Shown: positions 9,340 to 62,399, numbered from the stretch's first letter. The stretch: DNA of 64,000 bases from an uncultured delta proteobacterium (GCA_963745035.1 CAVUVW010000010.1:128001-192000), one strand, 5' to 3'. The notes: a model not told the origin generated them from the sequence alone. Program-made: numbers and translations.

Positions 9340-9430
9340 TGTCGCCTCCCGCTCTCTCGCCAGATTGTTTGACTCATAGCATGAGCCGCGCGTGAACGTC
9401 CACAGCGCTGCTTAAGCGATCCCCTTGCAT

Positions 9431-25767: not shown

Positions 25768-25986
25768 GCGTCTGAGAGCGTTCGGGATTTTTCCCGAGCG
25801 TCATTTTCCGGAAATCTGTTCATTGTGCTCGGAAAAGCTCTCTTCCCACCTCGCTCTCTGAGGGCGCGACGGTTTATCGCCGCTACGCGCGTGAATGGGT
25901 CCCCGCAAATTTCTTTGGCGCCGGGATTGGACGATTGTCGGTCGACGATTTGCGCATGGGATTTGGCGCACAATGGATAAACGCGT

Positions 25987-27489: not shown

Positions 27490-27525
27490 TTGATCCGATT
27501 GGCCTGGGGCGGCTGCGGAGGAACG

Positions 27526-28990: not shown

Positions 28991-29069
28991 GGGTTTGTGT
29001 GCGATTGTGACGCGATGGCAGGGAAAGTCGCAGCCGACGCCGCGCCGTGCTGATGTCTGAGGGGAAAAA

Positions 29070-31467: not shown

Positions 31468-31483
31468 GCGCTTGGCAAGCAGA

Positions 31484-33340
31484 ATGAGCGAGCCAAGCGA
31501 GCCGCGCGCGGCGCATGACTATATTGTCGTCGGTTCGGGCGCAGGCGGCGGCACCTTGGCGGCGCGCCTTGCCGAAGCCGGCCGTTCGGTGCTGCTCCTC
31601 GAGGCCGGCGGCGACCCGCTTCATCTGACCGGCGACCGGCTCCCCGAAGACTATCAGGTTCCCGCCTTTCATGCGTTCGCGTCGGAGAATCCCGCCATGC
31701 GCTGGGATTTCTTCGTGCATCACTACCGCGACGAAGTTCGGCGCGGCAAGGATTCCAAGTATACGGCGGACCGGCGCGGCGTCCTCTATCCGCGCGCCGG
31801 CACGCTCGGCGGTTGCACCGCGCACAATGCGATGATTCTGATTTATCCGCACAATTCCGACTGGGACTACATTGCCGAGCTTACGGGCGATTCGTCGTGG
31901 CGCGCCGCCAACATGCGCAAATACTTCCAGCAGCTCGAAGAATGCCGGCACCGACCGCTGGCGCGCTGGTTTAAAAAAACGACCGGTCTCAATCCATCTC
32001 GCCACGGGTTTGACGGTTGGCTGACGACGGAGGTGGCGATTCCGATGGAGGCGCTGGAAAACCGCGGCCTGCGAAAAATGCTGGAGGAACTCGCGGTCGA
32101 TGCCTCCGCCAAGCTTGGCAGCCGGCTCAAGCGGCTGCGCTGGTTTTTCAAAACGCGCGGCGATCCCAACGACTGGCTCTGCGTGAAAGCGAATTCGTAC
32201 GGATTGCGCGTTCTGCCGCTGACCACGCGCGATCATGTTCGGATCGGCGCCGCGGAACGGGTTCGTGAGGTCGCTGAAAAATATCCCGACAAGTTGACCG
32301 TCGAGTGCGATGCGCTGGCGGCGCGGGTAATTTTCAATGATGACAATCGCGCCGTCGGCGTCGAGTACCTCAAGGGCGAACGGCTCTATCGCGCACATGC
32401 TCGTCCCAGCAGCGCCGAAGGAGAGAAGCGTCGCGCATTCGCTTCGAAGGAGGTTCTGCTGTGCGGCGGCGCGTTCAATACGCCGCAGCTCTTGATGCTT
32501 TCCGGAGTCGGACCGAAAGAAGAATTGGCACGCCATGGTATCGAAACGAGGGTGGACCTGTCGGGCGTCGGCAAGAATCTGCAAGACCGCTACGAAGTCG
32601 GCGTCGTCAATCGTATGAAAGAGGATTGGCCGATGATGGCCGGGGCGCGCTTCGATAAGACTGACCCTCACTATCGAGATTGGCAGGCGAACAAACGCGG
32701 TATCTACGCGACCAACGGCGGCGTGCTCGCGATCATCAAGGCATCCCGACAGGGCGATATTCCTGATCTGTTCTGCGCCGGTCTCGTGGGAAAATTTCAG
32801 GGGTACTTCCCGGGCTATTCGAAGCTGATCGCCGAGCACCGGAATTATTTGAGCTGGATTGTATTGAAAGCTCATACGTTGAACCATGCCGGCACGGTGA
32901 CACTGGCATCGTCCGATCCGCGCGAGCCGCCCAAGATCGAGTTTCGCTACTTCGACGAAGGCAGCGATCACGAAGGAAAAGATCTGGACGCGGTCGTCGA
33001 AGGCGTCAAGTTTGTGCGGGCAATGACAAAAGATCTGAGAGAACGCGGCGTGATTGCCGAGGAGGAGCTGCCGGGCGATCGCTGTCGCACGGACGACGAG
33101 CTGAAGGAATTCGTCCGCGACAACGCCTGGGGCCATCATGCCTCTTGCACCTGTCCGATCGGCTCAAGAGAGCAAGGCGGCGTTCTGAGCGGTGACTTTC
33201 GCGTGCACGCCACGAAAGGATTACGGGTGGTCGATGCATCGGTATTTCCCCGCATCCCGGGATTTTTCATCGTCAGCGCGGTTTACATGATCGCCGAAAA
33301 GGCAGCGGAAGTGATTCTCGCCGACAAAAAAGATCCGTAG
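31484..33340 (+). CDS. GMC family oxidoreductase (choline dehydrogenase-like)
   Basis: DYIVVGSGAGG FAD motif, YPRAGTLGGCTAHNA, GVGKNLQD, WGHHASCTC, GLRVVDASVFP, MIAEKAA. Confidence 0.92.
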   Translation: MSEPSEPRAAHDYIVVGSGAGGGTLAARLAEAGRSVLLLEAGGDPLHLTGDRLPEDYQVPAFHAFASENPAMRWDFFVHHYRDEVRRGKDSKYTADRRGVLYPRAGTLGGCTAHNAMILIYPHNSDWDYIAELTGDSSWRAANMRKYFQQLEECRHRPLARWFKKTTGLNPSRHGFDGWLTTEVAIPMEALENRGLRKMLEELAVDASAKLGSRLKRLRWFFKTRGDPNDWLCVKANSYGLRVLPLTTRDHVRIGAAERVREVAEKYPDKLTVECDALAARVIFNDDNRAVGVEYLKGERLYRAHARPSSAEGEKRRAFASKEVLLCGGAFNTPQLLMLSGVGPKEELARHGIETRVDLSGVGKNLQDRYEVGVVNRMKEDWPMMAGARFDKTDPHYRDWQANKRGIYATNGGVLAIIKASRQGDIPDLFCAGLVGKFQGYFPGYSKLIAEHRNYLSWIVLKAHTLNHAGTVTLASSDPREPPKIEFRYFDEGSDHEGKDLDAVVEGVKFVRAMTKDLRERGVIAEEELPGDRCRTDDELKEFVRDNAWGHHASCTCPIGSREQGGVLSGDFRVHATKGLRVVDASVFPRIPGFFIVSAVYMIAEKAAEVILADKKDP

Positions 33341-34306: not shown

Positions 34307-34399
34307 AGGGTTGCCGCTGGAACGAGGCTCGCTCCGAGAATTCTTTCCAAACGGACCGAAACAGGCTATGAGAAATCAAGAAAAGCTGCGAGGTCGTTG

Positions 34400-36836
34400 A
34401 TGGCTAATTTTTCCGTGGTCGGCCAGTCGGTCCATCGGACCGACGCGAATCCGAAAGTGACCGGGCGGGCGCTGCACGTCGGCAATATCGAGATGCCGGG
34501 CATGCTGCACGTCGCGGTGCTGCGAAGCCCGTACGCGCATGCGCGGATTGTCCGCATCGATAAAACGAAGGCGGAAAAGCTGGACGGCGTCGCGGTCGTG
34601 CTGACCGGCGCCGAAATCGCCAAGATGCCGGGCATCGATCCGCACTTCGGTCCGGCGTTTCGCGATCAGCCGATCCTCGCCGTCGAGCGGGCCTGTTACA
34701 TCGGCGACCCGGTGGTCGCAGTGGCGGCGGTCGACAAACGCGCGGCGGAAGACGCCTTGCAGCTCGTCGAAGTCGATTACGAAGCGCTGCCGGCGGTGCA
34801 CGACGTGCTCGAAGCGGCCGCGCCGGGTTCGCCGCTCGTCCACGAGCAGCACCGGCCGGCCAAGGCGTTTGCCGACCTCGCGCATGTGAAAGCCGGGCAG
34901 CAGTCCAACGTCTGTTACCACTTCAAGCTGCGCACCGGCGACGTCGACAAAGCGTTTGCCGAGGCGGACAGGATCTTCGAAGACAGCTTCAGCTCGCCGC
35001 CGGCGCAGCATGTGCCGATGGAGCCGCATGTGACCCTGGCGTATTTCGACGAGCACGAGCGCTTGAATATCTGGACCGCGAGTCAATCGCCGTCCTACGT
35101 GCGGACCGAAATATCCGCGACCTTCGGCATCCCGATGAACCGCATCCGGGTGCGCGTGCCATATCTCGGCGGCGGCTACGGCGCCAAGCTTTACGCCAAG
35201 CTCGAGCCGCTGTGCACGGTGCTCGCGCTGATCACCAAAAAGCCGGTGCGCTACGCGCTCACGCGCGAAGAAGAATTCTTGACGATCACCAAGCACAAGG
35301 TCGTCACCAAAATCAAAACCGCGATCAAAGATGGCGCGATCAGCGCGCGCAAGTGCGAAGTCTATTGGGACACCGGCGCCTACGCGGAAATCGGCCCGCG
35401 CATCGGCCACAAGTCAGGCTACACGTCGGCGGGCCCGTATCGGATTCCCAACGTGTGGATCGATTCCTACTGCGTGTACACGAACAAAGTGCCCGCAGGC
35501 GCGTTTCGCGGCTTCGGCGTGCCGCAGGTGATTTGGGCCTACGACTCGCAGACGGACATGATCGCGCGCGCCCTCGGCGCCGATCCGGTCGAGTTTCGGC
35601 TGCAGCCGGCGTTGGACGAAGGCGAGCGCTTCGCCACTGGCACGCCGGTGAAATCGTTCGGCGTCAAAGAAGCCATCCGCCAGGCGGCGCAGGCTATCGA
35701 ATGGTCAAACCCGAAAGCTTCACAGCACGGAACCAAGCGCCGCGGCAAAGGGATCGCGGCCGGCGTCAAGGCCGTGCTCACACCGTCGATCTCCGGCGCT
35801 ATCGTCATCCTCAACGCCGACGGCAGCGCCAACGTGCTGAGCAGCACGGTGGAAATGGGCCAGGGCTCGGAAACGACGATGGGGCAGATCGTCGCCGAAG
35901 AGTTGGGCATCTCGCCCGAACGCGTTCACATCGTCCAGCCCGACACCGACGTTACGCCCTACGACACGATCACCGCCGGCAGCCGCTCGACGTATCACAT
36001 GGGCAATGCCGTGCGCATGGCCGCCGGTAAAATCAAAAAGGAGCTGTGCGACGTCGTCGCCTCGAAGCTGGAGGTCGATCCCGACGACCTGCTGGTGCGC
36101 AACGGCCGGGTCGTCGTGCGCGGCTTGGAAGAACGCGGCATGGCGATCGGTGAGATCTTTCTCGCCAAGTTCGGGAGCCTGGGTACGACACTCGCGGCCG
36201 AAGCGGTCTGCCAGCCGAGCGCAGCACACATGGATCCGGAAACCGGCCAGTCGGAAAAGTGCACGGAGTACTGGTTCCCTTCGGCCACGTCCGCCGAAGT
36301 CGAAGTCGATACGGAAACAGGGCGGGTCAAGATACTGCAGCTTTTCAGCGTCGGCGACACCGGCACGGCGATCAATCCGCGCCACTGCGAGCAGCAGCTC
36401 CAAGGCGCCGCGATCATGCACTTGGGACTCACGATGTTCGAGGAAATGATTTTCGAGGAAGGCCAGCTCGTCAACGGCTCGCTGCTCGATTATCAGGTCG
36501 CCTCGTTCAAGGATATGCCGGAGTCGGTCAAGCCGATCGTCGTGCAGGTGCCGCACGAAGACGGCCCGTTCGGCGCCAAAGGCGCCGGCGAGACCGGCGC
36601 GTTGACGGTCGCGCCGGCGATCGCCAACGCGATTCACGACGCTGTGCGGCGTGCGCATCCGCGACTTGCCGATCACGCCGGAAAAAGTTCTGCGGGCGCT
36701 GGAGGAAGCCGAAGGACAGCGTTCGCGATTGATCCCATTCGCCTTGCAGCGAGCCGCGAGCGCCGCGCGGCTTGCAAAGACAGAATGGCCTGCGGCTACT
36801 TCGTCGGCGGCTTTTTCATCATCTCGTCCATGTTGA
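34400..36836 (+). CDS. Xanthine dehydrogenase family molybdopterin-binding subunit; frameshift near 36648, exact stop uncertain
   Basis: LRSPYAHARI, HVPMEPH, LGGGYGAK, AFRGFG, EMGQG, GPFGAKGAGE; terminal IRDLPITPEKV in the shifted frame. Confidence 0.9.
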
Positions 36837-37323
36837 TGTTCGGCATATTCGGCATGCCGGGCATCGAAATGTCGCCGGGCTTTTGCCCGGCTTGGCACGG
36901 TCCCAGCCACTTTGCTTCGATCACTGAGGACGATTCTTTCATGCCGCGAAGCGGCGGCTCATAGGTGGTTTTGATGTCGGCCTTGTAGGCGGAGTCGAAG
37001 CGGCCCGTGAATACGGCGCGCGTCGTCGCGGTGCTATTTTCCATTTTGCACACCGATTCGGCGACGATCTTTTCGCCTTCCTTGCGCATCTCGCTTTTGC
37101 TGCACTGCGTTTTCTGAGTTGCGCCCATCTCCTTGGTCATCAGATCGTCGGTCTTTTCGTCGATGCACTGTTGCAGCGCGGGCATGCCCTTGCTTTGCGC
37201 GCCCGACATTTTTATCTCCCAGAGGCCGGACTTCCGTTTGGGCGCATCGAACGAAGCGGCTGCCACCGGACCGGCGACAAGCAGGGCGACGAACAAGGCA
37301 AGAACCTGCATAGAGACCTCCAT
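36796..37323 (-). CDS. DUF3617 family exported protein
   Basis: Signal peptide, PKRKSGLWEI, QQCID, AKWLGPC..GQKPGD. Confidence 0.8.
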   Translation of the reverse strand: MEVSMQVLALFVALLVAGPVAAASFDAPKRKSGLWEIKMSGAQSKGMPALQQCIDEKTDDLMTKEMGATQKTQCSKSEMRKEGEKIVAESVCKMENSTATTRAVFTGRFDSAYKADIKTTYEPPLRGMKESSSVIEAKWLGPCQAGQKPGDISMPGMPNMPNINMDEMMKKPPTK

Positions 37324-37362
37324 GAATCGAAAATTAAGGGAGTTTCGCTTCGGGCGGTGAAC

Positions 37363-38343
37363 TCAGATCGGCGCCGGCGAGTCGAGCTCGAAGCCGAGAT
37401 CCGAGATCATCCGGTGAGCATCGGAGGCTTCCTGTCCGGGCGTGGTCAGGTAGCCGTTGACGAAGATCGAGTTCGCAGGATAGAGGCTTAGCGGCTGGAG
37501 CGAGCGCAGGTTCACTTCCCGGCCGCCGGCCACGCGAATTTCCTTGTCAGGGTTGACGAAGCGAAAAAGACAAAGCGTTTTTAAGCAGCGCTGCGGAGTG
37601 AGCTCGCGTTTGCCTTCGAAGGGAGTGGCCGGAATCGAATTGAGAAAATTCACGGGAATCGAGTCGATGTCCATCGCGCGCAGGGTCAGCGCCAGGTCGA
37701 TGATGTCTTCGTCGCTTTCGCCCATGCCGATGATGCCGCCCGAGCAGGTGCCGATCCCGGCGTGCTTGACGTTTTCGATCGTGGCCACGCGGTCGTCGTA
37801 GGTGTGGGTGGTGACGATCTCCGGATGGTGCGCGCGGCTGGTGTTCAGATTATGATTCACGCGGCCAACGCCCGCATCCTTGAGCTTTTCGGTCTTGTCC
37901 TGATTCATGAGGCCGAGGGAGCAGCACACGTTCATACCGGTTTCTTTGCGGATCTCGCGCACGGCGTCGGCGATGTCGTCGATCTCTTTGTTGGTCGGGC
38001 CCCGGCCGCTGTTGACGATGCAAAAGCGCACCGCGCCGGCGGCTTTCGCCTGCCTGGCGCTTTCGACCAGCTTTTCTTTGGCCATGAACGGGTAGCGGTC
38101 GATGGGCGCTTCGGACACCGAGGATTGCGAGCAATAGTGGCAATCTTCGGGGCAGAGGCCGCTCTTGGCATTTTGCAAAACGTGGATCTGCACGCGCTTG
38201 CCGTAATAGCGATGGCGCACTTTGAAGGCCGCGCTCAAAAGCTCCGGCAGCTCCTCGTCGCCCGCGTCGAGGACGGCTTGCAACTCCTCGCGTTCGGGGA
38301 TGATGCCTTGAAGCGCTTTGTCGGCCAACTGCTGAAAATCCAT
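37363..38343 (-). CDS. bioB: Biotin synthase
   Basis: Radical SAM CPEDCHYCSQS, RFC, CCSLG, NHNLNTS, CSGGIIGMGE, SIPVNFL, IRVAGGRE, ANSIF..YLTT. Confidence 0.96.
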   Translation of the reverse strand: MDFQQLADKALQGIIPEREELQAVLDAGDEELPELLSAAFKVRHRYYGKRVQIHVLQNAKSGLCPEDCHYCSQSSVSEAPIDRYPFMAKEKLVESARQAKAAGAVRFCIVNSGRGPTNKEIDDIADAVREIRKETGMNVCCSLGLMNQDKTEKLKDAGVGRVNHNLNTSRAHHPEIVTTHTYDDRVATIENVKHAGIGTCSGGIIGMGESDEDIIDLALTLRAMDIDSIPVNFLNSIPATPFEGKRELTPQRCLKTLCLFRFVNPDKEIRVAGGREVNLRSLQPLSLYPANSIFVNGYLTTPGQEASDAHRMISDLGFELDSPAPI

Positions 38344-38374
38344 TTCGATCCTCCAAAAAATCAGACGATTTTTA

Positions 38375-38839
38375 TCACGCGTGGTCGGGCCTTTGCAAAT
38401 ATGCGTCACGAGCGACGAATCTGCCCCAGAGGTACAAGAAAGCCGCCAAGACGAAGTGGAAAAAGATCGGTATAGCGCCGCCGAGCCAGCGCATCTCAGG
38501 AAGGAAGATCATCGTCAGCGCGTAGCGCAGCGCCATGCTGCCCGCGTAAGCAGCGCTGAAGCCGATAAGAAAACGCGACCAAGATGGTCGCGTAGCGGCG
38601 AAGAAGCCTGTGCCGCGCCAAATGTCCGACGCAATTTTGATCATCACCACGATCATAACGATCTGAATCGTTAGAAGGGCGGGATAGGGGATGAGACCGG
38701 AAGCCCATTCCTTGCTCGACGGCAGCCAATCGACTGAAAAGAATACGACGAGAGCTTGGCCCAACACTCGAAAGAGGAAAAGCAATGTCAGGAGCGCGAG
38801 AACATAGCCATACATCCCTGGCTTCAATGTGGGTTTCAC
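38375..38839 (-). CDS. Hypothetical 4-TM membrane protein
   Basis: GTGA overlap with the GH3 stop (alternative ATG at 38815); LFLFRVLGQALV, WASGLIPYPALL, IPIFFHFVLA. Confidence 0.75.
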   Translation of the reverse strand: MKPTLKPGMYGYVLALLTLLFLFRVLGQALVVFFSVDWLPSSKEWASGLIPYPALLTIQIVMIVVMIKIASDIWRGTGFFAATRPSWSRFLIGFSAAYAGSMALRYALTMIFLPEMRWLGGAIPIFFHFVLAAFLYLWGRFVARDAYLQRPDHA

Positions 38840-40519
38840 GGCTGGGATTCGTCGGCGCACTGCACGATCAGTTGAATCTCGCTTGGATCTTCCGGCACGG
38901 CGGTCAAGAGCGCAGCTTTGAACTGGACGTCGCGCGCGCCGCTCTGGACGTTCGCGTCGGTTTTGCGCTCGAACCAGCCCGAGCTCATGACCCAAAGGAC
39001 CGGCGCGGCTAGCCGGCGCGACTCGCGCTTTTGGGCATATTCGATATTGAGTTTGCGAAGGCACGCGTCGAACTCGCGCAGCAGCCGCGATAGTTGCTCT
39101 TGATCAGGCGAGGCACCGTGCAATTCCACGGCGAAGGCGTAGAGCGATCTTTCCACGTCGGCACAGGCGCGAAAGTGTCGCAAGGCGACGCCCGCGGCGC
39201 TCTGCGCCTGCGCCATGGCCTCAATGACTTGATTGACGTGAAGCTTCTCGCCGGTGATGTTGGTTACATCGCGGCCTTTGCGCACGAACTCGATCAAGCG
39301 GGGTGCGGTTGTAAAAGCCGGCGACGCGAACCACGTCGTTGATATCGTAGCGATAGAGCCCGCCGGGCGTCGTCAGGATCAAATAGTAGCTCGCGCCCTC
39401 CTCGAGCTCCGCGCAGGTGAGAACCGTCGGCATGGGCTGCCGATTTCTGACTTCGGGAATGAACTCGTAGAAGTTTTCGTCGACGGCGAGAATGCCGGCG
39501 GAACCCGTATCGGAGATCGGCAGGGTTATTTGCGCTTCGCTCGCCATGTATCCGAGGTCGCGCACCGGGGTCTTGTCTGCCGAACCAGCGGGCGAATTCC
39601 TTCAAGCGCGTGCCCACCGTGCCGCCTTTCCAGCAGCCGATGAGCTGCAGTCGCGGCCAATATTCTCTCGGGCGGAGCGTGCCGTCGTACTTGATCAAAG
39701 ACTCCAGTCGGCGCGCGCGCGCGGGGTTTTTGCCGAGACGGCTCGCCAGCGCTTTGCGCAATTCCGCCGGCAGGCTGCAACCGGGACGGATGGTGCCGTC
39801 GCGAATGTCTTTGAATGATGTCGTGCTTTAGTCTCGATTCGCGCGTCTCCACCAGCTTGAGAATCGTGCTCGGATTGGGCGTGCCGAAAAACGTAATGTC
39901 GCTGTTCCAACGCGAGGCGCATGGTGAGGTAGTATTTCGCTTCGAAGTCTTTGATCTCGGCGATTTCATAGGGAGCCGCGTAGGCATTCTGGATCCAGCT
40001 CGGACTGCTTTGGTAGATGAACCCCGAAGCGGCGCCGAAGGGGATGCCGCCCGGCGGTTCTTGCCTTCGACCGCGGGACTCACGACGCCGAGCAGCTTGC
40101 CGCTGAAAAGATCGGGATGGTCGAGCAGCGCGCGATGATACCAGAAGCGGGTGAGCTGGCGATGGTTGCGGCGCGACGCTTCGGTGACCGGGATCAGCTT
40201 GGGTTGGCCGGTGCTGCCGCTGGTCATCGCGAACATCAGCGCCGGCTCCGCGGTCAGCACGTTCGTTCTCGCCGTTCTGGGCGCGCTCGACGTAGGGACG
40301 CAGGCGCTCGTAGTCGCCGATGGCGACCTGCGCGCGATATTCGCGGAGAGAAGCGATGGCGTCGAAATGATGATCGCGGCCAAAGCTCGTGGCGCGATTG
40401 CGCGAGATCATTTTAAGCAGGAGCTTGTTCTGAACTTCTTCCGGTTTGGCGGTGAGGCTCTGCCAGCGTGCCCACTGGCGTTCGGTCAGGAATGCGGCGG
40501 CTTTCAGCAGAAGGGCCAT
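38836..40519 (-). CDS. GH3 family acyl-acid amido synthetase (ANL superfamily); multiple 1-nt frameshifts
   Basis: Colinear GH3 motifs across frames: YERLRPYV, FAMTSGSTGQPKLIPVT, GYMASEA, GLYRYDINDVV, FVRKG..TGEKL. Confidence 0.85.
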
Positions 40520-40525
40520 GACATC

Positions 40526-42399
40526 CTAGCGGTGTATTTCGTGCTTTGCGCCGGCGAGGCGTTCCAGGGCGTCGTCTCTGACGGTGACGCTGAGGCCGCG
40601 CGTTTTGAGCAAGCGGCGCGCGCCCGCCGAGTCCGAACGCGACGTTTTCGAAGGTGACGTCTTCGGCTAGCAGCCAGGTGCCGAAAGAACCTTCGGCGCA
40701 TTGCGAGCTCGGGTAAATGCGCCGCGAACGTGCGTCCGGCGGCGGACAAGATTCCGGTTTCGCCCACCTGCGCGCCGACTTGGATCTTGATGCCGGCTTG
40801 CTGCGCCAATTGGGCGATCGCCAGACTGCCGCTGATGCCGCCGCATTTAGAAAGCCGGATATTGAACGAGTCGCAAGCGCCGAGCTCGATCAGTTGGCGC
40901 GCCTGCGCGACGGTGACGAGCGATTCGTCGGCCATGACCGGAATGCCGCAACGATCGCGCACCTGCTTCATGCCGGTGATATCGCCGGCGGCTACAGGCT
41001 GCTCGATGCATTGGAGCTGGAACCTGGCGAGGCGGTGGAGATGCTCCACCGCTTGTTCGGCAGTCCACGCGCCATTGGCGTCGGCACGCAGCTCGACCTC
41101 GGCGCCGACCGCTTTGCGCACGGCTTCCATGCGCGCAAAGTCATCGGCGCCGCCGACCTTGACTTTGATTTGCCGCAGTCCCAGGCGCGCCATCCGTCTT
41201 GCGAGAGCGGCCGCTTCCGCCGGTGCGTCGGCCGAGATCACGCCGCTGTAAACGACTTCGAGGCGGCTGGGGGGAAGTAAATCCGCCAGGGCGCAATGGT
41301 CGGCGCGCAGCGCCCAATCCAGAAGCGCCAGCTCGACGGCGCAAAAAGCGGCGTTCCACGCAACCACGCCGGAGCCGTTTTCCTGCTCCGTCCACTGCGG
41401 CATGACGCTCTCAAGATATTCCAGAGTTTCCCAGCCGGGCGTGAAAGACTCGGCGAAAATCTTCGGCGCCATTCGGTCTTGAATGTGCGCCACCATGGAT
41501 GCCGTCGTCTCGCCGGTTACGTAGGAGCGGGGCAAGCTCTCGCCGTAGCCGCTCCGGCCGTCGGCTGCCGGTGACTTTGACGATCACCGAGTCGCTTTCT
41601 TCGCGGCTTTGCAGCGCATGGCGAAAGGCCTGATGAAACGGGATGCGGAGCTGATAGATCGTGATCGATTCGATGCGCCGCGCTTTTGCCGGCGCGGCTT
41701 TGCTGTGCGTTCGCCGCCGCGACGCCGCGGGAAAATAGTGGCGCACGAACAGGTCGTCGCCAAGAGTGAACGCGGCGATGTGGTCGAAGAGATCATCCGA
41801 GATTTCGATGAAAAGCCAGATAATCCCGCACCACGCTCACGCCTTCCTCGGCATGGCGGATATCGACCTCGGAATGCAGCTCGAACCAGCGCAGCGCCGG
41901 CTTGGCGAAGCCGTACAGATTCATGAGGGCCGCGGCGATCTCGCTCGAACAGCGCGACAGCATGAATTCGAAGCTCATGGTTTCGAGCAACACCGACAAG
42001 CAAAGCTCGCGCAGGGTGGCGACCGGCACGCGCGTCGCGCAAAAAGTCGCGACCCGCCGGCGGGCGTCGACAATCAGCTCGTCGATCTCGCGTTCGGTCG
42101 AAGCCCAGCCCACGCGCCATTTCCAGGAGCAGGGCGGAATGAGGCTTCTCGTCGCTCCGAACCCATCTCTTCCAGGAGATTTTCTTTCAAAAGCGCGGCG
42201 GCGTCGGCAGGAAGCGCGGCGAAGCACAGCGCGACGATGTGCGACGACAGGTAATGGGTGCGAAAAACGTTGCCGATGAATTCGCGCGCGGCTTGCGGCG
42301 ACGGCGTCGCCCGCGACGAGCCCGCGATACTCGGCGGAGCCGCGAAAATCGCGCGTGGCGTTGTCGAAAGCAAGATGTGATATGCTCGACCGAGATCAT
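40526..42399 (-). CDS. Fusion of heme-oxygenase-like diiron (PqqC/CADD-like) domain and enolase-superfamily (MLE/dipeptide epimerase-like) domain; multiple 1-nt frameshifts
   Basis: RBS GGAGG; N-half ENLLEE..H, ETMSFE, HSEVDIRH; C-half YGESLPRSYVTGET, KVKVG, DANGAW, EQP, ADES, NIRLSKCGG, EGSF; linker RHYFPAAS..RIESITIY is open with no stop. Confidence 0.72.
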
Positions 42400-42442
42400 T
42401 GCCCTTCCTCCGGCGCCGCCGATGCGGCCCCGTCTTCCATGC

Positions 42443-45400
42443 TTAGCGATTGGGTGTCTGCGATCGCTCCTGGGCCATGGCCTTGATTCGTCGCAAATCG
42501 ACTTTTCCCGAGCCGAGGAGCGGCAGGGCTTCGACGACGTGGAGATTCTCGCGCTTGGGAATCCAGAGCTTGGGCAGATCGGAGCGATTCAGTTTGTCCC
42601 AAAGCTCGTCCCGGCTCATGCCGTTCTGCGCATAGAATGCCACGAGTTTCTCGCCGCGCTGTTCGTCGGGCAGCGCGGTGACCGCGGCGGCGGGACTGCC
42701 GAGAACTTCGTTCATGGTTTCTTCGACCTTCATGTGCGGCACCATCTCGCCGCCGATCTTGCTGAAACGCGAAATCCGATCGACGATGCGGATGAAGCCG
42801 TCGTCATCGACGGCGGCGATATCGCCGGTCACGTACCAGCCGTGGCGCAGCGCCTGCTCGGTGAGCTGAGGCTGGCCGAGGTAGCCGAGCATCAGATTAG
42901 GCCCCTTCACGAGCAGCAGGCCTTCCTCGCCGGGCGGCAGCGGTCGCTCGCTGTCGCGGTCGACGACTTTGACCGCGACGCCGGGAATCGGATGGCCGAC
43001 GGTTCCCGGCTTGTGGCCGATCTGTTTTTCCGCGCCGTCGAGCACGTCTTCGACGTTGACCGACACGACCGGCGCGAGCTCGGTGCAGCCGTAGCCTTCG
43101 AAGATGGTGATGCCGTATTTCTCTTGATAGCCCTTGGCCACCGGCTCGCGGAGCTTTTCGGCGCCGGCGATCACGTAACGCAGCGAGGCGAACTCTTCCT
43201 TGGTGCAGCGCCTGAGATAGCCGGCGAAGAAGGTCGAGGTGCTGATCAGCAAGGTGGCTTTGTATTTCTGCACGGTCTCGCCGATGGTCTTGGCGTCGGT
43301 GGGATTGGGATGATAGACGACGCCGAACTCCGCCAGGAGCGGCAGCCACAACGTGCCGGTGAACCCGAAGGAGTGAAACAGCGGCAGTACGCCCATGATA
43401 CGATCGCTGGTTTTTAGCGCAATCGCTTGGTGGATGCCTTCGATATTGGCGACGATATTGTGGTGCGACAGCATCACGCCCTTGGGCGCGCCGGTGCTGC
43501 CGCTGGAAAAAATCACGGTCGCCAGGTCGCTCGCTTTTTGGCTTCTCCGGTGGCGGCGGCACAGCCAGGACGCGGGCAGTAAAAACGCTTTGAGAGCGGC
43601 GACTGCTTTTTGCGGCGACGAGAAGTCCTTGCGGAGCTCTTCGAGAAAAACCATGCCGGGGATATTTTCCAGACCGGCTTTGGACAAAAAGACGCGAGAT
43701 GTGAGGATCGTCTCGATGCGGCACTGCTCGATGGCCGAGGCCATCGCTTCGCGGCCGGCGGTAAAATTCAAATTCACCGGCACTTTGCCGGCGAGAAGGA
43801 CGGCGATGTTTGCGAGCGCGCCGCCCACCGAGGCAGGCAGCAACACTCCCACCATCTGCTGTTGTCCGCAGCGCTTTTGGATCCAGCCGGACAACAAGAG
43901 GCTGCCGATCAGAGTCTTTCCGTAGCTCAGCTCGGTGCCGGTGGTGTCGGCCATACAAAAGGAAAACCAGCGCCGCTTCGCGCTTTCGATGAATCTCGTG
44001 TGCAGCAGATCGGCGGCGCTCGGACGATGGTCAAAGGCGTTGCTCTCGAGCACGGCAACGGCCCCCCGCACGTCCGCTGCGGTCGCATCGGAAGGAAGCG
44101 GCGATCCGAAGGAAACCGTGACGGGATCAAACCAGCGCTTGGGCCATTTCCAAAAAAATTTCCCGTCCTTGAAGCTGAAGATGCTGCCCCACAATTGATC
44201 GAGGTGCACGGGGATGATCGGCACCGAGGTGCCTTCGACGATTTTTTCGAAGCCGCGTTTGAACGAGCGCAAACGGCCGTTTCGGCTGATCGCGCCTTCG
44301 GCGAAAATGCACACGACGTGGCCCTTGTCGAGCTCGTTGCGCGCGTGCTTGAGCGATTGCACGATATCGCGCCGATTGCTTGCCGACACCGGAATCGCGT
44401 GCATCAGGCGAAAAAGCCAGTTCAAGAATTTGATGTCGTAATAGTCGCGGTGCAGCATGAAGCGCACCAGCCGCGGCAGCGATCCACCGATCATGAACGC
44501 GTCGACGAAAGAAACGTGATTCGAAACCAGTAGCGCGGGGCCCTGGAGCGGCAGATTTTCCGCGCCGACGACCTTGATACGATACACCGTGTGCGTGAAC
44601 AGCCAGAGGATCAGCCGGACGAAATAATCGGGGAGAAAATAGAGAATCGCCAGGGTGCCGGCCAAGGTCACCAAACCGGTCAGCAAAATGATCGTTTCCG
44701 GCGTGAAATCCAGCGGCGTCTTGAACAGCCAGTGGACCGCGGCGGCGAGCACGATGCCGAGGGTGTTCATGAAATTGTTGGTGGCGATCAATTGGCCTTT
44801 TTCCTCGCGTCCGGCTTTTTGCTGGAGAAAGGCGTTGAGCGGCACGGCGAATAGTCCCGCCGAGAAGCCGAGGCCGACGAGCGCGGCGGCGGTGTGCGCA
44901 TAGGACGGCGCCGAGAGCGCCACCAAGCCGAGACAGATGCCCATGGCCACGGAGCCCAGCGGCACCAATCCCATTTCGATATGATCGCCGGACAGCCGTC
45001 CGGCGGCGAGGCTGCCCAAGCCGATGCCGACCGCCAGGAACGTGCCGAGCAAGCCGATGTGAAACTCATCGAGTCCGAGCAGTTCCTTGCCGAAGAACAG
45101 CATATTGATCTGTACCAGCGCGCCGAGAAACCAGAAATAAGAAATGCCGATCACGGTCAGCCAGAGAGGGCGATCGCGGCGCAGGCGGCGCAGGCCGTCG
45201 ACGATTTCGCCGAACGGATTCAGCCGGAAGAGCTTCGCCGCGCCCGACGGCGCCACCCGGGCGATGCCCTGGCTGGTGAATACTCCTAGAATCGCAATGA
45301 CCAGCATCAACAAACCGATCAACGGCAGGTTGTGCTTCCAAAGCGCAAAGATCGCGCTGCCCATGGACGTGCCGAGGATGATCGCCATGAACGTGCTCAT

Positions 45401-45844
45401 CTCCAGGAGGCCGTTGCCGCGTGAGAGGTCCTTGTCGGGAAGCATCTCCGGTAAAATCCCGTACTTGGCGGGACTGAAAAACGCCGCGTGGAGGCCCATG
45501 AGAAACACCAGCACGAGCATGGACTCGAGATGGCCGATATAAAATGCAGCGATCGCCAAAACCATGATCACGACTTCGAAAAATTTGACCGCGACCAGAA
45601 TCGTCCGCTTGCTGTACACGTCGGCCAGATGGCCGGCGTAGCCGGAAACCAGCGCTGAGGGCAGAATGAACAAGAAAGCGATGATCTCGACGTAGCCGGG
45701 ACCGCCGTGCACCGCGAGATTCAACGCGACGAAGGAAACGACGATCTTTAGGAAATTGTCGTTGAAAGCGCCGAGAAACTGCGTCCAGAAAAACGAGAAA
45801 AAACCAGGTTGTCTCAGGGTGTCGCTATATTTGCCGTTGCTCAT
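42443..45844 (-). CDS. aas: Aas-type trifunctional MFS / lysophospholipid acyltransferase / acyl-ACP synthetase
   Basis: TQFLGAFNDN MFS start, SNHVSFVD and FAEG PlsC motifs, FSSGSTGAPKG, EGYGCTE, YVTGD, SRFSKIGGEMV. Confidence 0.93.
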   Translation of the reverse strand: MSNGKYSDTLRQPGFFSFFWTQFLGAFNDNFLKIVVSFVALNLAVHGGPGYVEIIAFLFILPSALVSGYAGHLADVYSKRTILVAVKFFEVVIMVLAIAAFYIGHLESMLVLVFLMGLHAAFFSPAKYGILPEMLPDKDLSRGNGLLEMSTFMAIILGTSMGSAIFALWKHNLPLIGLLMLVIAILGVFTSQGIARVAPSGAAKLFRLNPFGEIVDGLRRLRRDRPLWLTVIGISYFWFLGALVQINMLFFGKELLGLDEFHIGLLGTFLAVGIGLGSLAAGRLSGDHIEMGLVPLGSVAMGICLGLVALSAPSYAHTAAALVGLGFSAGLFAVPLNAFLQQKAGREEKGQLIATNNFMNTLGIVLAAAVHWLFKTPLDFTPETIILLTGLVTLAGTLAILYFLPDYFVRLILWLFTHTVYRIKVVGAENLPLQGPALLVSNHVSFVDAFMIGGSLPRLVRFMLHRDYYDIKFLNWLFRLMHAIPVSASNRRDIVQSLKHARNELDKGHVVCIFAEGAISRNGRLRSFKRGFEKIVEGTSVPIIPVHLDQLWGSIFSFKDGKFFWKWPKRWFDPVTVSFGSPLPSDATAADVRGAVAVLESNAFDHRPSAADLLHTRFIESAKRRWFSFCMADTTGTELSYGKTLIGSLLLSGWIQKRCGQQQMVGVLLPASVGGALANIAVLLAGKVPVNLNFTAGREAMASAIEQCRIETILTSRVFLSKAGLENIPGMVFLEELRKDFSSPQKAVAALKAFLLPASWLCRRHRRSQKASDLATVIFSSGSTGAPKGVMLSHHNIVANIEGIHQAIALKTSDRIMGVLPLFHSFGFTGTLWLPLLAEFGVVYHPNPTDAKTIGETVQKYKATLLISTSTFFAGYLRRCTKEEFASLRYVIAGAEKLREPVAKGYQEKYGITIFEGYGCTELAPVVSVNVEDVLDGAEKQIGHKPGTVGHPIPGVAVKVVDRDSERPLPPGEEGLLLVKGPNLMLGYLGQPQLTEQALRHGWYVTGDIAAVDDDGFIRIVDRISRFSKIGGEMVPHMKVEETMNEVLGSPAAAVTALPDEQRGEKLVAFYAQNGMSRDELWDKLNRSDLPKLWIPKRENLHVVEALPLLGSGKVDLRRIKAMAQERSQTPNR

Positions 45845-45943
45845 AAAAATTCGCCGTAGAAGTCCCCTATTTGTTTCATTAAAAGGGGATTTAATTCAAG
45901 ACTTTTTCCCGTCCGGCCGGTTGAGCGTGTATCCGTGATTCTC

Positions 45944-45972
45944 TTGCAACCCGCAACGGACATCCACATAAT
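45944..45972 (+). promoter_or_regulatory. Sigma70-like promoter for pgeF (leaderless geometry)
   Basis: TTGCAA-17 nt-CATAAT-6 nt-ATG; no Shine-Dalgarno. Confidence 0.6.
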
Positions 45973-45978
45973 CGGCGC

Positions 45979-46761
45979 ATGGAAATCACATGGTATCAGG
46001 TTCCCCGGTGGCAAGGATATCACGGTTTGCTGCACGGCTTTGCCGGCCGCGGGGGCGGAAAAAGCGCCGGGCCTTATGCCGGATTGAACACTTCGTATCG
46101 CGTCGGGGACGACCCGAAGATCGTCAGCCAGAACGTCTGCGATTTGAAGCTCGCCGCCGGCATTCACGACGGCAGGATCGTCACCATGCGCCAGGTCCAC
46201 GGCGACGATATCGTCGAAGTCAAGGACAAAAAGCTCAAAGAAGCCGGCGAGGCCGACGGGATGATCACCGCCGAGCAGGATATTTTTCTTGCCGTGCTCA
46301 CCGCCGATTGCGTGCCCATGCTGTTCGTTGCGCCGAAGCAGAGACTCGCCGCCGCCGTGCACGCCGGCTGGCGCGGCACCTTGGCGGGGATCGCGGAGAA
46401 GACCGTGCGGCTATTTCAAACGGAGCGCGGCATCGAGCCGGCGGATTTGGAAGTCGCGCTCGGCCCCTCCATCGGTTCGTGCTGCTACGAAGTCAAAGAC
46501 GATGTTGCCGGCCCGCTGATGAAAAGATGGGGCAAGCTGACGACGCCGAGCGTCTTTGTCCGGGAAGGCAAGTCCTATATCGATTTGCGACGCCTCAATC
46601 GGGACATTCTCCGCGCCGCCGGCGTGCCCGGAAGCCAGCTCTTTCAAGTGGGGCCGTGCACCCGCTGCGCCGCGGAAGAATTCTTCTCTTACCGCCGCGC
46701 GGGCGGCGAAACCGGCAGGCAGATGAGCCTGGTCGGTTGGCTGCCTGCCGCGTCGACTTAA
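45979..46761 (+). CDS. pgeF: Peptidoglycan editing factor PgeF / YfiH family
   Basis: QVHG, TADCVP, AAVHAGWRG, GPSIGSCCYEV, FFSYRR. Confidence 0.92.
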   Translation: MEITWYQVPRWQGYHGLLHGFAGRGGGKSAGPYAGLNTSYRVGDDPKIVSQNVCDLKLAAGIHDGRIVTMRQVHGDDIVEVKDKKLKEAGEADGMITAEQDIFLAVLTADCVPMLFVAPKQRLAAAVHAGWRGTLAGIAEKTVRLFQTERGIEPADLEVALGPSIGSCCYEVKDDVAGPLMKRWGKLTTPSVFVREGKSYIDLRRLNRDILRAAGVPGSQLFQVGPCTRCAAEEFFSYRRAGGETGRQMSLVGWLPAAST

Positions 46762-47910: not shown

Positions 47911-47987
47911 GGAGTAACGGAGTATTGGAATGGTGGAGTAATGATCTCTTGATCCAGCACCCCAATACTCCATCACTCCATCACCCC
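47911..47987. repeat. GGAGTAAT 8-mer tandem plus inverted array
   Basis: GGAGTAAC GGAGTATT GGAATGGT GGAGTAAT, spacer, AGCACCCC AATACTCC ATCACTCC ATCACCCC. Confidence 0.9.
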
Positions 47988-47999
47988 GTTCTCTCTTCC

Positions 48000-48779
48000 G
48001 TGGCCATTCTTGAAGTTCAAGAATCTCGCGAAGAGCTACCGGCAAGCGGGCGGCGAAACTACCGCGGCGATAGGCAATATTTCCTGCCGCGTGGAACGGG
48101 GTGAATTCGTTTCCTTCGTTGGACCCTCCGGCTGCGGCAAAACCACACTGCTCATGACGATCGCGGGCCTGTTGGCGCCGAGCGACGGCCGAGTGGTGGT
48201 CAACGGCAAAGTGGTCAACGGTCCTCCCGCCGATCTGGTCCTGTTATTTCAGGAGTACAACAAATCTTTATTTGCCTGGCGCACCGTGCTCGGCAATGTC
48301 CGCTTCGGTCTGGAAGCGCGCGGCGATCATTCGCCTGATACCGCGAGCCGGGCGCGCGCGCTGATCGAGCTGGTCGGGCTCGCGCGGTTTTGAAGCTCAT
48401 TATCCGTGGGAGCTTTCCGGCGGCATGCAGCAGCGGGTGGCGATCGCCCGCGCGCTCGCCTACGCGCCGGAAGTCTTGCTGATGGATGAACCTTTCGGCT
48501 CGCTCGATGCGCTGACGCGGCTGGAGCTGGAAGACACCTTGTTGCGGCTTTGGGCCGAGCTCAAGACCACCATCGTGTTCATCACCCACGATATCGAGGA
48601 AGCGATTTATCTCTCGGACCGGATCTGGGTGTTGAGCCGAAGGCCGTCCGCAGATTATCGAAGAATTGCCGGTCGCGCTTTCCCGGCCGCGCGATCAGGT
48701 GGCCACCCGCGCCGAAGCGCGCTTCATGGAACTGAGAAATCACATTTACCGCAGGATCAGTAATCCGGCTACGGCGTGA
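48000..48779 (+). CDS. NitT/TauT family ABC ATP-binding protein; several frameshifts
   Basis: GPSGCGKT Walker [26 protein letters not shown] across ORFs 48010-48393 and 48425-48763. Confidence 0.85.
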
Positions 48780-49557
48780 ACCGGCTGAAAAACGTCAACA
48801 TGACCCGGCTGGTCGAGCTTCGCGCTCGTGCTGCTCCTCGTGGGAGCTCGGCGCGCGCGTCGCGCCGGCTTACCGGCTCTACCTGCCGCCGATCAGCGAG
48901 GTGCTGGCCGCGCTGGGTCGCGTGCTGTTCGACGGCCCGGTGGCCGGCCATCTGCTGGTTACCTTGGAAAGATTTGCCGCCGGCTATTTGATTGCCGCGG
49001 CGCTCGGCGTGTCGCTCGGCGTTGCGCTCGGCTATTTTCCGTCCTGGCACCGGCTGTTCGGCACCGTGATCGAGTTTTTGCGCCCCATGCCGTCGGTGGC
49101 GATCATTCCGGTGGCGATTTTGCTGCTCGGCATCGGCGACGCCATGATCGTCGCGGTGACGGCGTACGCGAGCGTCTGGTCGATTCTCGTCAACACCATC
49201 GACGGCGTCCGAAATATCGAAACCACGCTCGTCGCCACCGGCCGAACCTTCGGGCTCAGCCTGCGCGCGATCTTGTGGCGCATTATTCTCCCCGCCGCTT
49301 CGCCCTACATCGTCACCGGCTTGCGCATCGCGCTGTCGATCGCGCTGATTCTGGTGACGACCGCCGAAATGGTCGCCGGGAGCAAGGGCCTCGGCTTTTT
49401 TATTCTCGACGAGGAGCGCTCGATGAACAGCCGCAACATGTACGCCGGCATTATCCTCGTGGCGGCGTTCGGGTACGCGCTCAATCGGCTGTTTCTGGCC
49501 CTGGAAGGGCGTGTGATGAGATGGCGCCACGGCATGATGGCGCGGGAGATCGCGTAA
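48776..49557 (+). CDS. NitT/TauT family ABC permease; N-terminal frameshift(s)
   Basis: EFLRPMPSVAIIP, NTIDGVR, ILPAASPYIVTGLR, AEMVAGSKGLG. Confidence 0.87.
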
Positions 49558-49560
49558 GAA

Positions 49561-50334
49561 ATGTCACGCGCGGAAGCTCAGTGGCCCGTTATTTCTCCTC
49601 TGTCTCCTGATCCTCTGGGAAGCCGCGGCGCGCGCCGAGCTGACCAATCCGCTGCTTGTGCCGCCGGTGAGCCGGATTCTGACGATTTTCTGGGAGGCGG
49701 TTTCTTCAGGTCAGATTCCCATGCAAATTCTTCTCAGCATGAAGCGCGCGGCGGCGGGCTACCTGCTTGCCGCCGCGGTGTTCATTCCCTTGGGCATTTT
49801 CATGGGGTTGTCGCGGCGTGCCCACCGCGCCCTGGAAGTGATCGTCGAAATGCTGCGGCCGGTGCCGCCGCCGGCGATGATTCCCGTGGCGCTGCTGTTC
49901 TTCGGATTGGAAGACGAAATGAAGATCTTTGTGATCTTTTTTTCCTGCGCTTGGCCGATTCTGCTCAACACCATCGACGGCGTGCGCAGCATCGACTGCG
50001 GTGCTTTGGAATACGGCAAAAACATTCTCGTTTGTCGCGCGGTCAGACGATCTGGCGCGTCATCCTGCCCGCCGCATCGCCGCAGATCATGACCGGTTTG
50101 CGCGTGAGCCTGCCGATCATGTTGATTCTCGTCGTGATCTCGGAAATGGTCGGCAGCACCGATGGCATCGGCTACTTCATTCTCGACTCGCAGCGCAGAT
50201 TCCGGGTCGCGCAGATGTACGCGGGCATGCTGGCGCTCGCGCTATTGGGTTATGCGCTCAATCAGCTTTTCAATCTACTGCACCGCCGGTTGCTGTGGTG
50301 GCACTGGGGGATGATGCGAAGAGAGCTGGAGTAA
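49561..50334 (+). CDS. NitT/TauT family ABC permease 2; frameshifts
   Basis: EMLRPVPPPAMIP, NTIDGVR, ILPAASPQIMTGLR, SEMVGSTDGIG. Confidence 0.85.
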   Translation: MSRAEAQWPVISPLSPDPLGSRGARRADQSAACAAGEPDSDDFLGGGFFRSDSHANSSQHEARGGGLPACRRGVHSLGHFHGVVAACPPRPGSDRRNAAAGAAAGDDSRGAAVLRIGRRNEDLCDLFFLRLADSAQHHRRRAQHRLRCFGIRQKHSRLSRGQTIWRVILPAASPQIMTGLRVSLPIMLILVVISEMVGSTDGIGYFILDSQRRFRVAQMYAGMLALALLGYALNQLFNLLHRRLLWWHWGMMRRELE

Positions 50335-51455: not shown

Positions 51456-52545
51456 ATGCTGCTGATCAATAACCTCGAAGTGGAAAAGTTGTTGTCCATG
51501 AAAGCCTGTCTGGAAGCGCTTGAAGAGGCCTACGCCGATCTGCTGAAAGGCGACGCCGTGTATCGGCCGCGGCTGGATCTTTGGATGCCCTGCGATCGGC
51601 CGGACGGCTACTGGCGCTGGGGCACCATGGAAGGCGCGAGCCGCAAGATCGGCGTCTTCGCCATCCGCATGAAGTCCGACGTGGTATATTGGCCCAACGG
51701 CGATACCGAAGAAAAATACTGCATGCAGCCGGGCACGTGGTGCGGCCTGGTGATGGTCTTCAGCGTGCGCAACGGCGAGCCGTTGGCGATCATCAACGAC
51801 GGTTTGATCCAGCACATGCGCGTCGGTGCTTGCGCCGGATTGGGCGCCAAGTATCTTGCACGCGACGATTCGTGCGATGTCGGCATTTTCGGCTCCGGCG
51901 GCATGGCGCGCAGTTATCTCGAGGCGTTTTACGAAGTGCGCAAGCTCCGGCGCGCGCGGGTCTACAGTCCAACCAAGGCCAACCGCGAGCGCTTCGCCCG
52001 GGAGATGACCGGCAAATTGGACATCGAGGTGTTGGCGGTGGACGCAGCCGGAGAAAGTCGTGCGCGAAGCCGATATCGTCGCGACCTGCACGGATTCGAC
52101 GCGGACGGTGTTCGACGAGCCGGAGTGGCTCAAGGAAGGCGCGCATATCACCTGCGTGCGCGCCTGCGAAGTCGGACCCAAAGTCGTCAAGCAATGCGAT
52201 CTTTCCGTCAAGCTCGGCAAGAACACCATCGAGGCGATGGACGAAGGCATGATCCGCCTGCATGGCAATGTCGGCTACATCGCCGGCCAGCCGGAGGAGC
52301 GCGCACGCATTCCCAACCCCACGGTGGACAACTACCGGGGCGACTACTTCAAATACTTCATGGATGTGAGAAGCGGCAAAGTTCCGGGACGCACCAGTGA
52401 CAAGCAAGTCACATTTTTTATCAACGCCGGCACCCAGGGACTGCAATTCGCCGCCTGTGCCGGCAAAGTCGTGCAGCTGGCGAAACAGCAAAAGGTCGGA
52501 CGCGAGCTGCCGACCGAGTGGTTTTTGCAGGATATAAGGGATTAG
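51456..52545 (+). CDS. Ornithine cyclodeaminase / mu-crystallin family protein; frameshift near 52048
   Basis: GEPLAIIND..HMRVGA, AKYLAR, GIFGSGGMA, VYSPT, ADIVATCT, GTQGLQFAA. Confidence 0.88.
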
Positions 52546-61700: not shown

Positions 61701-62370
61701 TTGAACGGATGGTATCGCCGGCGAGCTGAAACGGCGCGCCGTTGATCACCGCGAAAAATTCCGGCTTGACCTTGATATCGACGTGGGTCGGCAGGCTCGA
61801 AATGAACGGCACGCCGATTCTGAGCTGGGTCACGTTGTGTTTGGTCTTTTCCGGCCGATCGTCGAAGTCGATCTTGCCGTCGACGATCTCAATATTATTG
61901 AGCGAGAATCGCGGCGTCGGACCGGGAGGGCCGCCGGTGAATTCTTCGATGAGATCCTGAAAATTGTATTTGCGATCTTCATTGCGAATCACGCTCACGT
62001 AGGGCTTGATCAGCCGCAGTTCCTTGACCACCGGCCCCAAGCGAAAGAGCGAGCGCATTTCCAGATTGACGAACAATTCATCGAAGGAAAGCGCGGGAGT
62101 GTCTCCCTGCCGCTCTTTCATCAGAAAACCGCGGATCGCCGCGCTCATGGCGAAAGGATTGATTGCGATCTGCTCGATCGAAACCGGACGGTGGAACTTA
62201 TCGGACAGCGCGCTGGCGACTTTGCCCCGGATCAGTGGCGGTGCGACCAGTCCGAGCAAAACTCCGATAGTGAACAGGATCGAAGCCAACCAGAGGACGA
62301 TCTTTCGAGTGCGTGGATGCCAAGCGACGCCGAGGGTTTGCTGGCGGATTTGATGAACGTCTAACGCCAT
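58729..62370 (-). CDS. DUF748 (AsmA-like) domain protein with OmpA-like C-terminal region; several frameshifts
   Basis: N-terminal TM, repeated beta-rich units (RNEDRKYNFQDL, RGRDGKINLQNL, RDADGTLNLA, GADGKLNLQNL), DLPISGSLDDPQFS, RPALNLEVIG, LASQRAQVVRD, RVDF. Confidence 0.85.
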
Positions 62371-62399
62371 GGCCGATGCGCGTAAGATTTCTTAGGCAA

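Follow-up and report, generated by a model that had tools for sequence, protein, structure and literature searches.

A widely conserved oxidase-enolase-GH3 gene cassette between aas and bioB, with a possible role in N-acyl amino acid synthesis

Which members of a row of five closely spaced genes belong together, and what might they make? The question is raised by the co-oriented minus-strand genes at 37363-45844 of the window, by which we mean the whole analysed stretch of 64,000 nucleotides (contig C10:128001-192000 of a 7.4 Mb genome in 28 contigs, about 58% G+C). Near-identical proteins carry the names of 'Candidatus Binatia' metagenome-assembled genomes (MAGs), and the lineage was therefore placed there. 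The row encodes Aas, a heme-oxygenase-like diiron oxidase (HDO) fused to an enolase-superfamily enzyme, a GH3 acyl-acid amido synthetase, a small membrane protein and the biotin synthase BioB. The initial annotation, made from the sequence alone, had proposed that all five form one lipid or amide pathway. We found that the conserved unit is smaller: it is HDO, then the enolase-superfamily enzyme, then GH3, often followed by a four-helix membrane protein. On balance, we lean towards the view that this widely conserved cassette makes and oxidatively tailors an N-acyl amino acid, and that the frameshifts interrupting two of its genes in the window are consensus errors.

Conservation of the cassette and its place between aas and bioB

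The HDO family is rare, with 103 cluster representatives among 1.84 billion proteins (E <= 1e-3), among which are proteins of about 620 aa that carry the fusion and others of about 230 aa in which HDO stands alone. When 185,579 genomes, one per species, were searched with an HDO profile, 78 loci were obtained, whose neighbouring open reading frames (ORFs) were then searched with the proteins of L017, a same-genus locus in which all five genes are intact (1131, 623, 558, 155 and 343 aa). The enolase gene is fused to the HDO gene or follows it directly in 77 of the 78 loci, the remaining contig ending inside HDO. GH3 follows in 73/78, and four of the five loci without it end at most 400 nt from the enolase gene, so that the order HDO, enolase, GH3 is kept in 73 of 74 testable loci. 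In 36/78 loci the membrane protein has a homologue, usually encoded directly after GH3; three Dehalococcoidia loci have it nearby on the opposite strand. HDO and enolase are fused in 36 loci and separate in 41. A quick tree of the enolases groups the separate Nitrospira form with the fused forms of Binatia and Chloroflexota in one clade (Shimodaira-Hasegawa-like approximate likelihood ratio test, SH-aLRT, 100), a grouping that implies two changes of state.

The carriers are Binatia-type MAGs, Chloroflexota/Dehalococcoidia, Nitrospira, Cyanobacteria, Omnitrophota, Pyrinomonadaceae (Acidobacteriota), Rokubacteria and Myxococcota-labelled MAGs, together with one Actinomycetota and one Sericytochromatia MAG. 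The cyanobacterial carriers include cultured Calothrix PCC 7103 and PCC 7716, Dulcicalothrix PCC 7102, Nodosilinea, Leptolyngbya and Phormidium tenue. Closer to the window, strong orthologues of the fusion gene were found in 9 of 18 other same-genus genomes and in 0 of 12 genomes from other families of the order.

A literature search that left out most subscription journals and supplements turned up no description of the cassette, in agreement with the initial annotation, which knew of no characterised pathway with this gene set. That annotation had missed a precedent: the step from GH3 to an aminolipid is already characterised, since OlsH of Singulisphaera acidiphila, itself a GH3 enzyme, converts a free fatty acid to N-acyl ornithine at the expense of ATP (PMC12493201).

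In the window, the genes are arranged as follows.

42443-45844, minus strand: aas, intact, 1133 aa; Pfam MFS_1, Acyltransferase (PlsC type) and AMP-binding
40526-42399, minus strand: HDO::enolase fusion gene, 623 aa in relatives; Pfam Haem_oxygenas_2 and MR_MLE_C on pieces
about 41690-42399, minus strand: HDO domain of the fusion gene
about 40526-41680, minus strand: enolase domain of the fusion gene
38836-40519, minus strand: GH3 acyl-acid amido synthetase gene, 558 aa in relatives; Pfam GH3, GH3_M and GH3_C on pieces
38375-38839, minus strand: small membrane protein gene, GTG start, 154 aa, four predicted transmembrane helices
37363-38343, minus strand: bioB (biotin synthase), intact; Radical_SAM and BATS domains
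36799-37362, minus strand: DUF3617 gene after bioB, with which the co-oriented run extends beyond the five genes

The close spacing first reported for the row holds: from aas to bioB the intergenic gaps are 43, 6, -4 and 31 nt (previously 44, 6, -4 and 31), the negative value being a GTGA overlap of the membrane-protein start with the GH3 stop. The domain identities given for the five genes are likewise correct by Pfam matches, and the HDO-enolase fusion is real, with an intact 623-aa orthologue in L017. Compared with the proteins of that locus, the window Aas is 82%, the membrane protein 67% and BioB about 90% identical; against the orthologues of eight same-genus loci, the window BioB is 84-87% identical. 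A promoter and terminator scan gave counts not above those of shuffled sequences (2 vs 1.8; 16 vs 12.4) and does not inform on operon structure.

This arrangement could be read as a five-gene aminolipid pathway, in which GH3 would N-acylate an amino acid with a fatty acid, HDO or the enolase would modify the chain or the head group, Aas would add a second acyl chain through its PlsC domain (as OlsA/OlsI do) or flip the lipid, and bioB would be co-regulated. The close spacing of all five genes is consistent with it. Among 22 Binatia-type loci, two of them too short to be judged, the gene immediately upstream of the fusion is Aas in 16 (16/20 testable), and the full order aas-fusion-GH3-membrane protein-bioB is present in 6 of the 8 same-genus loci retrieved (of the other two, one has a membrane gene with no bioB behind it, and the contig of the other breaks off within the fusion). 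In the Omnitrophota locus L050 (13470-18095), GH3 is followed on the same strand by an unnamed 436-aa protein, a RidA/FkbO-like 391-aa protein and an Aas-like MFS-PlsC-AMP-binding gene. The OlsH pathway, moreover, needs an O-acyltransferase, and its authors expected lysophosphatidic-acid-type acyltransferases to suffice (PMC12493201).

We nevertheless consider a five-gene pathway unlikely. Among the 56 non-Binatia cassette loci, bioB was found in none and an Aas-like three-domain gene in one, that of L050; L049 has a weak match on the opposite strand. In G006 (same genus, 99% complete; L105), bioB directly adjoins aas with no cassette between them, and in G015:C2 (L102, about 8744-10040) intact bioB and aas flank 1.2 kb holding only fragments of the membrane, GH3 and HDO genes. 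At the start of contig G007:C127 (L103, 548-2255), the membrane gene and bioB are present without a GH3 match in the 547 nt before them, which may be another partial cassette loss. Even within the Binatia-type loci the linkage varies: Aas and BioB are adjacent in L019 with the cassette 4.3 kb further on, and Aas is missing from L022 and L027 (10 kb of upstream flank each) and from L039 (4.4 kb). As these loci are kin, the order they share adds no independent support for a five-gene pathway. The L017 Aas orthologue also passes the NCBIfam equivalog model of the ordinary lysophospholipid-repair enzyme (NF006386, fused LplT-Aas; 1383 bits, cutoff 1221), as the L017 BioB orthologue passes TIGR00433 (402 bits, cutoff 225). 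The window aas shares all three domains with the LplT-Aas lysophospholipid transport and re-acylation system, but this likeness concerns a neighbour gene only, and outside the Binatia-type loci a single Omnitrophota locus shows it linked to the cassette. BioB, Aas and the cassette each occur in single copy in this genome, bioB being its sole biotin synthase.

We therefore propose that aas and bioB are probably flanking housekeeping neighbours outside the conserved cassette, which in this lineage is an accessory unit between two housekeeping genes. The five genes do not stand as one conserved pathway set, while a GH3-based amide or acyl-amino-acid pathway is still a reasonable reading. Co-occurrence in other genomes, which had been suggested as a test, separates the two: HDO-enolase-GH3 recurs across phyla, and the linkage of aas and bioB to it is found only in Binatia-type loci.

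Predicted activities of the cassette proteins

The GH3 of L017 matches the Pfam models PF03321, PF23571 and PF23572 at 237.7, 81.9 and 58.4 bits (cutoff 23.6), and the pieces of the window GH3 match the same three models in order. For the ATP/AMP motifs we adopted the definitions that we take to be those of the plant GH3 literature (T-S-G-x-T-G-x-P-K, S-E and Y-R-x-D); the residues T99, S100, G101, P106, K107, S324, E325, Y386, R387, Y388 and D392 are each kept in at least 97% of 67 cassette GH3s. The nearest solved relatives are the plant auxin- and jasmonate-conjugating enzymes GH3-1, GH3.8 and JAR1 (E 1e-38 to 1e-35), and the sole NCBIfam match is OlsH. Judged by their scores on the OlsH model, the cassette GH3s form a clade separate from it, since they reach 92-128 bits (96.3 and 92.1 for the cyanobacterial and Dehalococcoidia proteins) against a cutoff of 620. 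Other bacterial GH3 clades, many of which are described as unexplained by the OlsH authors, may use other amino acids (PMC12493201).

The OlsH/OlsI ornithine-lipid pathway resembles what we propose here, in that a bacterial GH3 joins an ATP-activated acid to an amino acid through an amide, and that its genes lie in a small operon with tailoring and acyl-transfer genes (PMC12493201). It differs in that HDO and the enolase-type enzyme are obligatory partners of the cassette and are lacking in the OlsH pathway; among the genes of the window, none was recognised as an OlsI-like or OlsG-like partner. OlsI, an alpha/beta-hydrolase O-acyltransferase, shares an operon with OlsH; the row in the window has no alpha/beta-hydrolase gene, and in 16 other loci CocE/NonD hydrolases follow the cassette. 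The orders that a review lists as having OlsH homologues include none of the cassette-carrying lineages (PMC12971839).

In the L017 orthologue, the HDO domain matches PF14518 (Haem_oxygenas_2) at 56.6 bits (cutoff 28.9). H48, E76, E77, H87, E144, H175, E177, D179 and H182 are invariant in 77/77 HDO homologues, and H87, H175 and H182 with E76/E77, E144 and D179 are predicted metal ligands that align with CADD. The closest solved structure is CADD/CT610 of Chlamydia trachomatis, a 4-aminobenzoate synthase (E 9e-9), which has the H-x3-D-x2-H pattern in common with HDO; the His/carboxylate positions align with it and with heme-oxygenase-like diiron oxidases (PDB 1rcw, 8va9). Together with a weak match to the CADD family TIGR04305 (25 bits, cutoff 200) and with the adjoining bioB, this would suit a vitamin locus, in which HDO would be a CADD-type self-sacrificing p-aminobenzoate synthase or another cofactor enzyme. 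Such a role is highly improbable in our view: the TIGR04305 score lies far under its cutoff, similarity to CADD is low overall, linkage to bioB is absent from 56/56 non-Binatia loci, and the obligatory partners are an enolase-type enzyme and GH3, with no folate genes or folate context. In addition, the position aligned with CADD Tyr27, which we take to be the self-sacrificing site, varies between Y, V, M and F in the nine family members compared, and this variation disfavours a CADD-like self-sacrificing role.

The enolase part has L-Ala-D/L-Glu epimerase (1jpm) as its top solved match (E 9e-41), followed by other dipeptide epimerases and then by N-acylamino acid racemases and muconate cycloisomerases. 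The KxK motif of strand 2 and the D, E, D metal ligands are kept in 71/71 enolase homologues and align with those of YkfB, dipeptide epimerases and N-succinylamino acid racemases (PDB 1jpm, 1tkk, 3jva). The position of YkfB K268, the second catalytic lysine at the end of strand 6, is Arg in 71/71 homologues, and an invariant Lys stands three residues after it, as in YkfB. The proteins thus carry the MLE-subgroup signature (KxK with D, E, D) and lack that of two-base racemases and epimerases. As the second catalytic lysine is replaced throughout, the enolase part is unlikely to be an ordinary racemase of the KxK type. Substrates of YkfB-type enzymes are N-acylated or peptidyl amino acids whose C-terminal carboxylate is free, the type of molecule that GH3 would make; the Arg and the fusion or pairing with HDO set the cassette enzyme apart from them.

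Two database proteins join HDO to other partners. P0194 (510 aa) carries an HDO domain joined to a C-terminal part of GH3; considered as a Rosetta-stone fusion, it was not retained as evidence because the remnant in G015 has the same make-up by deletion, and P0194 may be a deletion chimera. In P0199 (572 aa), a crotonase-like N-terminal part (an enolate-stabilising fold) is joined to HDO, which hints that HDO pairs with enolate-forming folds in general.

The membrane protein matched no Pfam or NCBIfam family, and the ESM Atlas gave only unnamed clusters. Its AlphaFold model (predicted local distance difference test, pLDDT, 84.6) has four long helices, for which VIA-align returned only generic helical-hairpin matches (Z <= 8.0); as no specific fold match was obtained, the fold is uninformative on function. 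Conserved polar residues are R24, Q28, Y52, Q59, R105 and H128. An ICMT gene takes the place of the membrane protein in L048; the idea, prompted by this, that the protein is a divergent ICMT-type methyltransferase found no support.

In other phyla, we counted accessory genes directly after the GH3 or membrane gene. They encode a CocE/NonD-family hydrolase in 16 loci (cyanobacteria, Pyrinomonadaceae and one Dehalococcoidia), a TIGR00027/LCM-type S-adenosylmethionine (SAM) methyltransferase in 5 (Nitrospira, Pyrinomonadaceae), an ICMT-type membrane methyltransferase in 2, an FMO-like flavoprotein in 4 Dehalococcoidia loci and a RidA/FkbO-like protein in L050. These genes would be compatible with a product in which a carboxylate is free and an amide or ester bond is present.

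Briefly, the following sequence of reactions may be proposed. By analogy with OlsH and plant GH3 enzymes, GH3 would activate a carboxylic acid, fatty or small, as its adenylate and couple it to the amino group of an amino acid, the carboxylate of which would stay free. The enolase part would then coordinate this carboxylate by way of Mg2+, and its KxK lysine would abstract the alpha-proton; with no lysine on the opposite face, the resulting enolate would serve elimination or oxidation and not two-base racemisation. On the same substrate the attached HDO, using O2, would carry out a hydroxylation, desaturation or decarboxylation, and the membrane protein would serve to export the product or to anchor it.

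The nature of the acid is the sole point on which another explanation differs from this proposal, namely that the cassette acts on a small non-lipid acid (aromatic or hormone-like, as for plant GH3, or amino-acid-derived) in signalling, detoxification or salvage, and that its product is no membrane lipid. The plant enzymes nearest to the cassette GH3 point that way, as do the accessory genes, which encode soluble tailoring enzymes (CocE/NonD hydrolase, SAM methyltransferases, FMO, RidA/FkbO-like). Among 45 neighbour ORFs of nine non-Binatia loci, there was no acyl carrier protein or fatty-acid synthesis gene, the sole fatty-acid-related neighbours in those loci being the Aas-like gene of L050 and the weak match of L049. 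On the other side, the only characterised bacterial GH3 uses fatty acids (PMC12493201), and a dedicated membrane protein accompanies the cassette in 36/78 loci. Our results do not bear on the identity of the acid, and we judge the small-acid alternative improbable.

A bolder extension of the proposed pathway, possible but doubtful at present, is that the HDO-enolase pair forms a new two-part catalyst, in which a Mg2+-stabilised enolate of the GH3-made N-acyl amino acid, formed by an enolase fold deprived of its second base (Lys to Arg), would be handed to an O2-activating two-metal site. The outcome would be an alpha-hydroxylated, dehydro or decarboxylated acyl-amino acid, that is a new class of amide metabolites or lipids in at least nine phyla, with Aas feeding fatty acids in Binatia.

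Interrupted reading frames in the fusion and GH3 genes

In the window, the reading frame of the fusion gene runs through -3, -1, -2, -3 and -1, and GH3 is split into five frame pieces (-1, -2, -3, -1 and -2), every frame change being in the same direction (+1). The window was compared with short-read contigs of four runs from four studies, which are about 98-99% identical to it and do not come from the same strain. The fusion gene shows eight one-base insertions, at 42377, 42303, 42152, 42095, 41808, 41566, 40704 and 40614; in a narrower comparison with the contigs of runs X5 and X6 (two studies), all eight length differences are a base extra in the window and none is the reverse. The insertions at 42303, 42152 and 42095 sit in the HDO part and cancel out, and it is because of these three that this part seems to be only 55% identical to its relatives. 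GH3 has at least four net frameshifts plus further indels, and the single bases that the contigs leave out include those at 41808, 41566, 40265, 39810 and 39578, with other cassette sites. At the junctions inspected, one extra base explains each shift, often as a doubled base and sometimes outside a homopolymer, and dropping it restores the reading of the relatives. Across aas and bioB, the contigs show 0 gaps. At 45455-46000, which covers the aas start and the upstream intergenic region, one X6 contig shows 7 gaps; the aas frame is open there.

The breaks in fusion and GH3 are probably consensus errors of a long-read assembly; for the fusion gene this follows from the absence of all eight insertions from contigs of about 98% identical strains in two studies. 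Other window genes look split or truncated as well: an ABC ATPase (47953-48760), an ABC permease (49538-50089), an ornithine cyclodeaminase-like gene (52009-52542), a DUF748/AsmA-like gene (59123-62391) and a RoxA-like cytochrome c (27490-28987), which points to a generally indel-prone assembly. Same-genus assemblies in few contigs have similar single breaks in the fusion gene. A homopolymer count gave no explanation for the clustering of errors in the cassette; one possibility is a lower read depth there, due to co-occurring strains free of the cassette.

That the copy in the window is instead a real pseudogene in decay has some evidence on its side. At least 12 frame-disturbing indels fall within 3.6 kb, against none in the 3.4 kb of aas and the 1 kb of bioB, and the cassette is dispensable in the genus, being absent in G006, decayed in G015 and represented by a fusion orthologue in only half of the same-genus genomes (9/18). 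However, the indels of the fusion gene are all one-base insertions, with no deletions, large ones included, and the domains are still recognisable, whereas natural decay, we infer, would be expected to mix indel types. Removal of the extra base at each inspected junction, the contigs of about 98% identical strains from four studies that lack the insertions, the split ABC_tran, DUF748 and RoxA-like genes elsewhere in the window and the similar breaks in other few-contig assemblies of the genus all argue the same way, and we regard a pseudogene as quite unlikely. The earlier concern that indels leave GH3 and the fusion dead is thus probably unfounded.

The reading of the cassette as a route to a tailored N-acyl amino acid has to be weighed against several observations. 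With contigs of another strain, about 98% identical, private frameshifts in this MAG are possible, and G015, of the same genus, holds a truly decayed cassette. L096 has 2.2 kb of flank after its enolase gene and no GH3 match within it. The position of Aas in 16/20 testable Binatia-type loci, and of the Aas-like gene two genes downstream of GH3 in L050, makes a functional link to Aas possible. The enolase part passes no NCBIfam equivalog cutoff (the best, muconate cycloisomerase, 153 bits vs 335), the L017 GH3 stays below that of OlsH (NF052613; 128.4 bits vs 620), and the membrane-protein model, with no named relative, has no Foldseek match in the PDB at E <= 0.001, so that the role given to it is a guess. 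Every chemical step is drawn from family resemblance, and the results fix neither an order with ligation first nor one with tailoring of the amino acid first.

Other genes of the window and significance

Elsewhere in the window, three consecutive plus-strand genes with cytochrome c motifs lie at 25981-31464, the first two also having RoxA-like domains. They are followed by a GMC oxidoreductase (31457-33337), an EamA transporter and the large subunit of a molybdopterin xanthine-dehydrogenase-type enzyme (34307-36961), the gene of which also adjoins bioB in relatives.

The analysis carries two cautions for annotation: aas and bioB are not to be read as members of the pathway, and broken genes in a long-read MAG call for polishing and not for a pseudogene label. 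The first bacterial GH3 was tied to a product in 2025, with OlsH and an ornithine lipid (PMC12493201). GH3-based synthesis of acyl-amino acids is thus already known, and what is new here is the fixed tailoring partners: the cassette defines one bacterial GH3 clade by its three fixed partners. As cultured cyanobacteria (Calothrix, Nodosilinea, Leptolyngbya) carry it, a direct search for its product is feasible. Finally, with an enolase part that has an invariant Lys-to-Arg change fused to a metal domain of the heme-oxygenase-like type, the cassette would combine two well-studied superfamilies in a new way.

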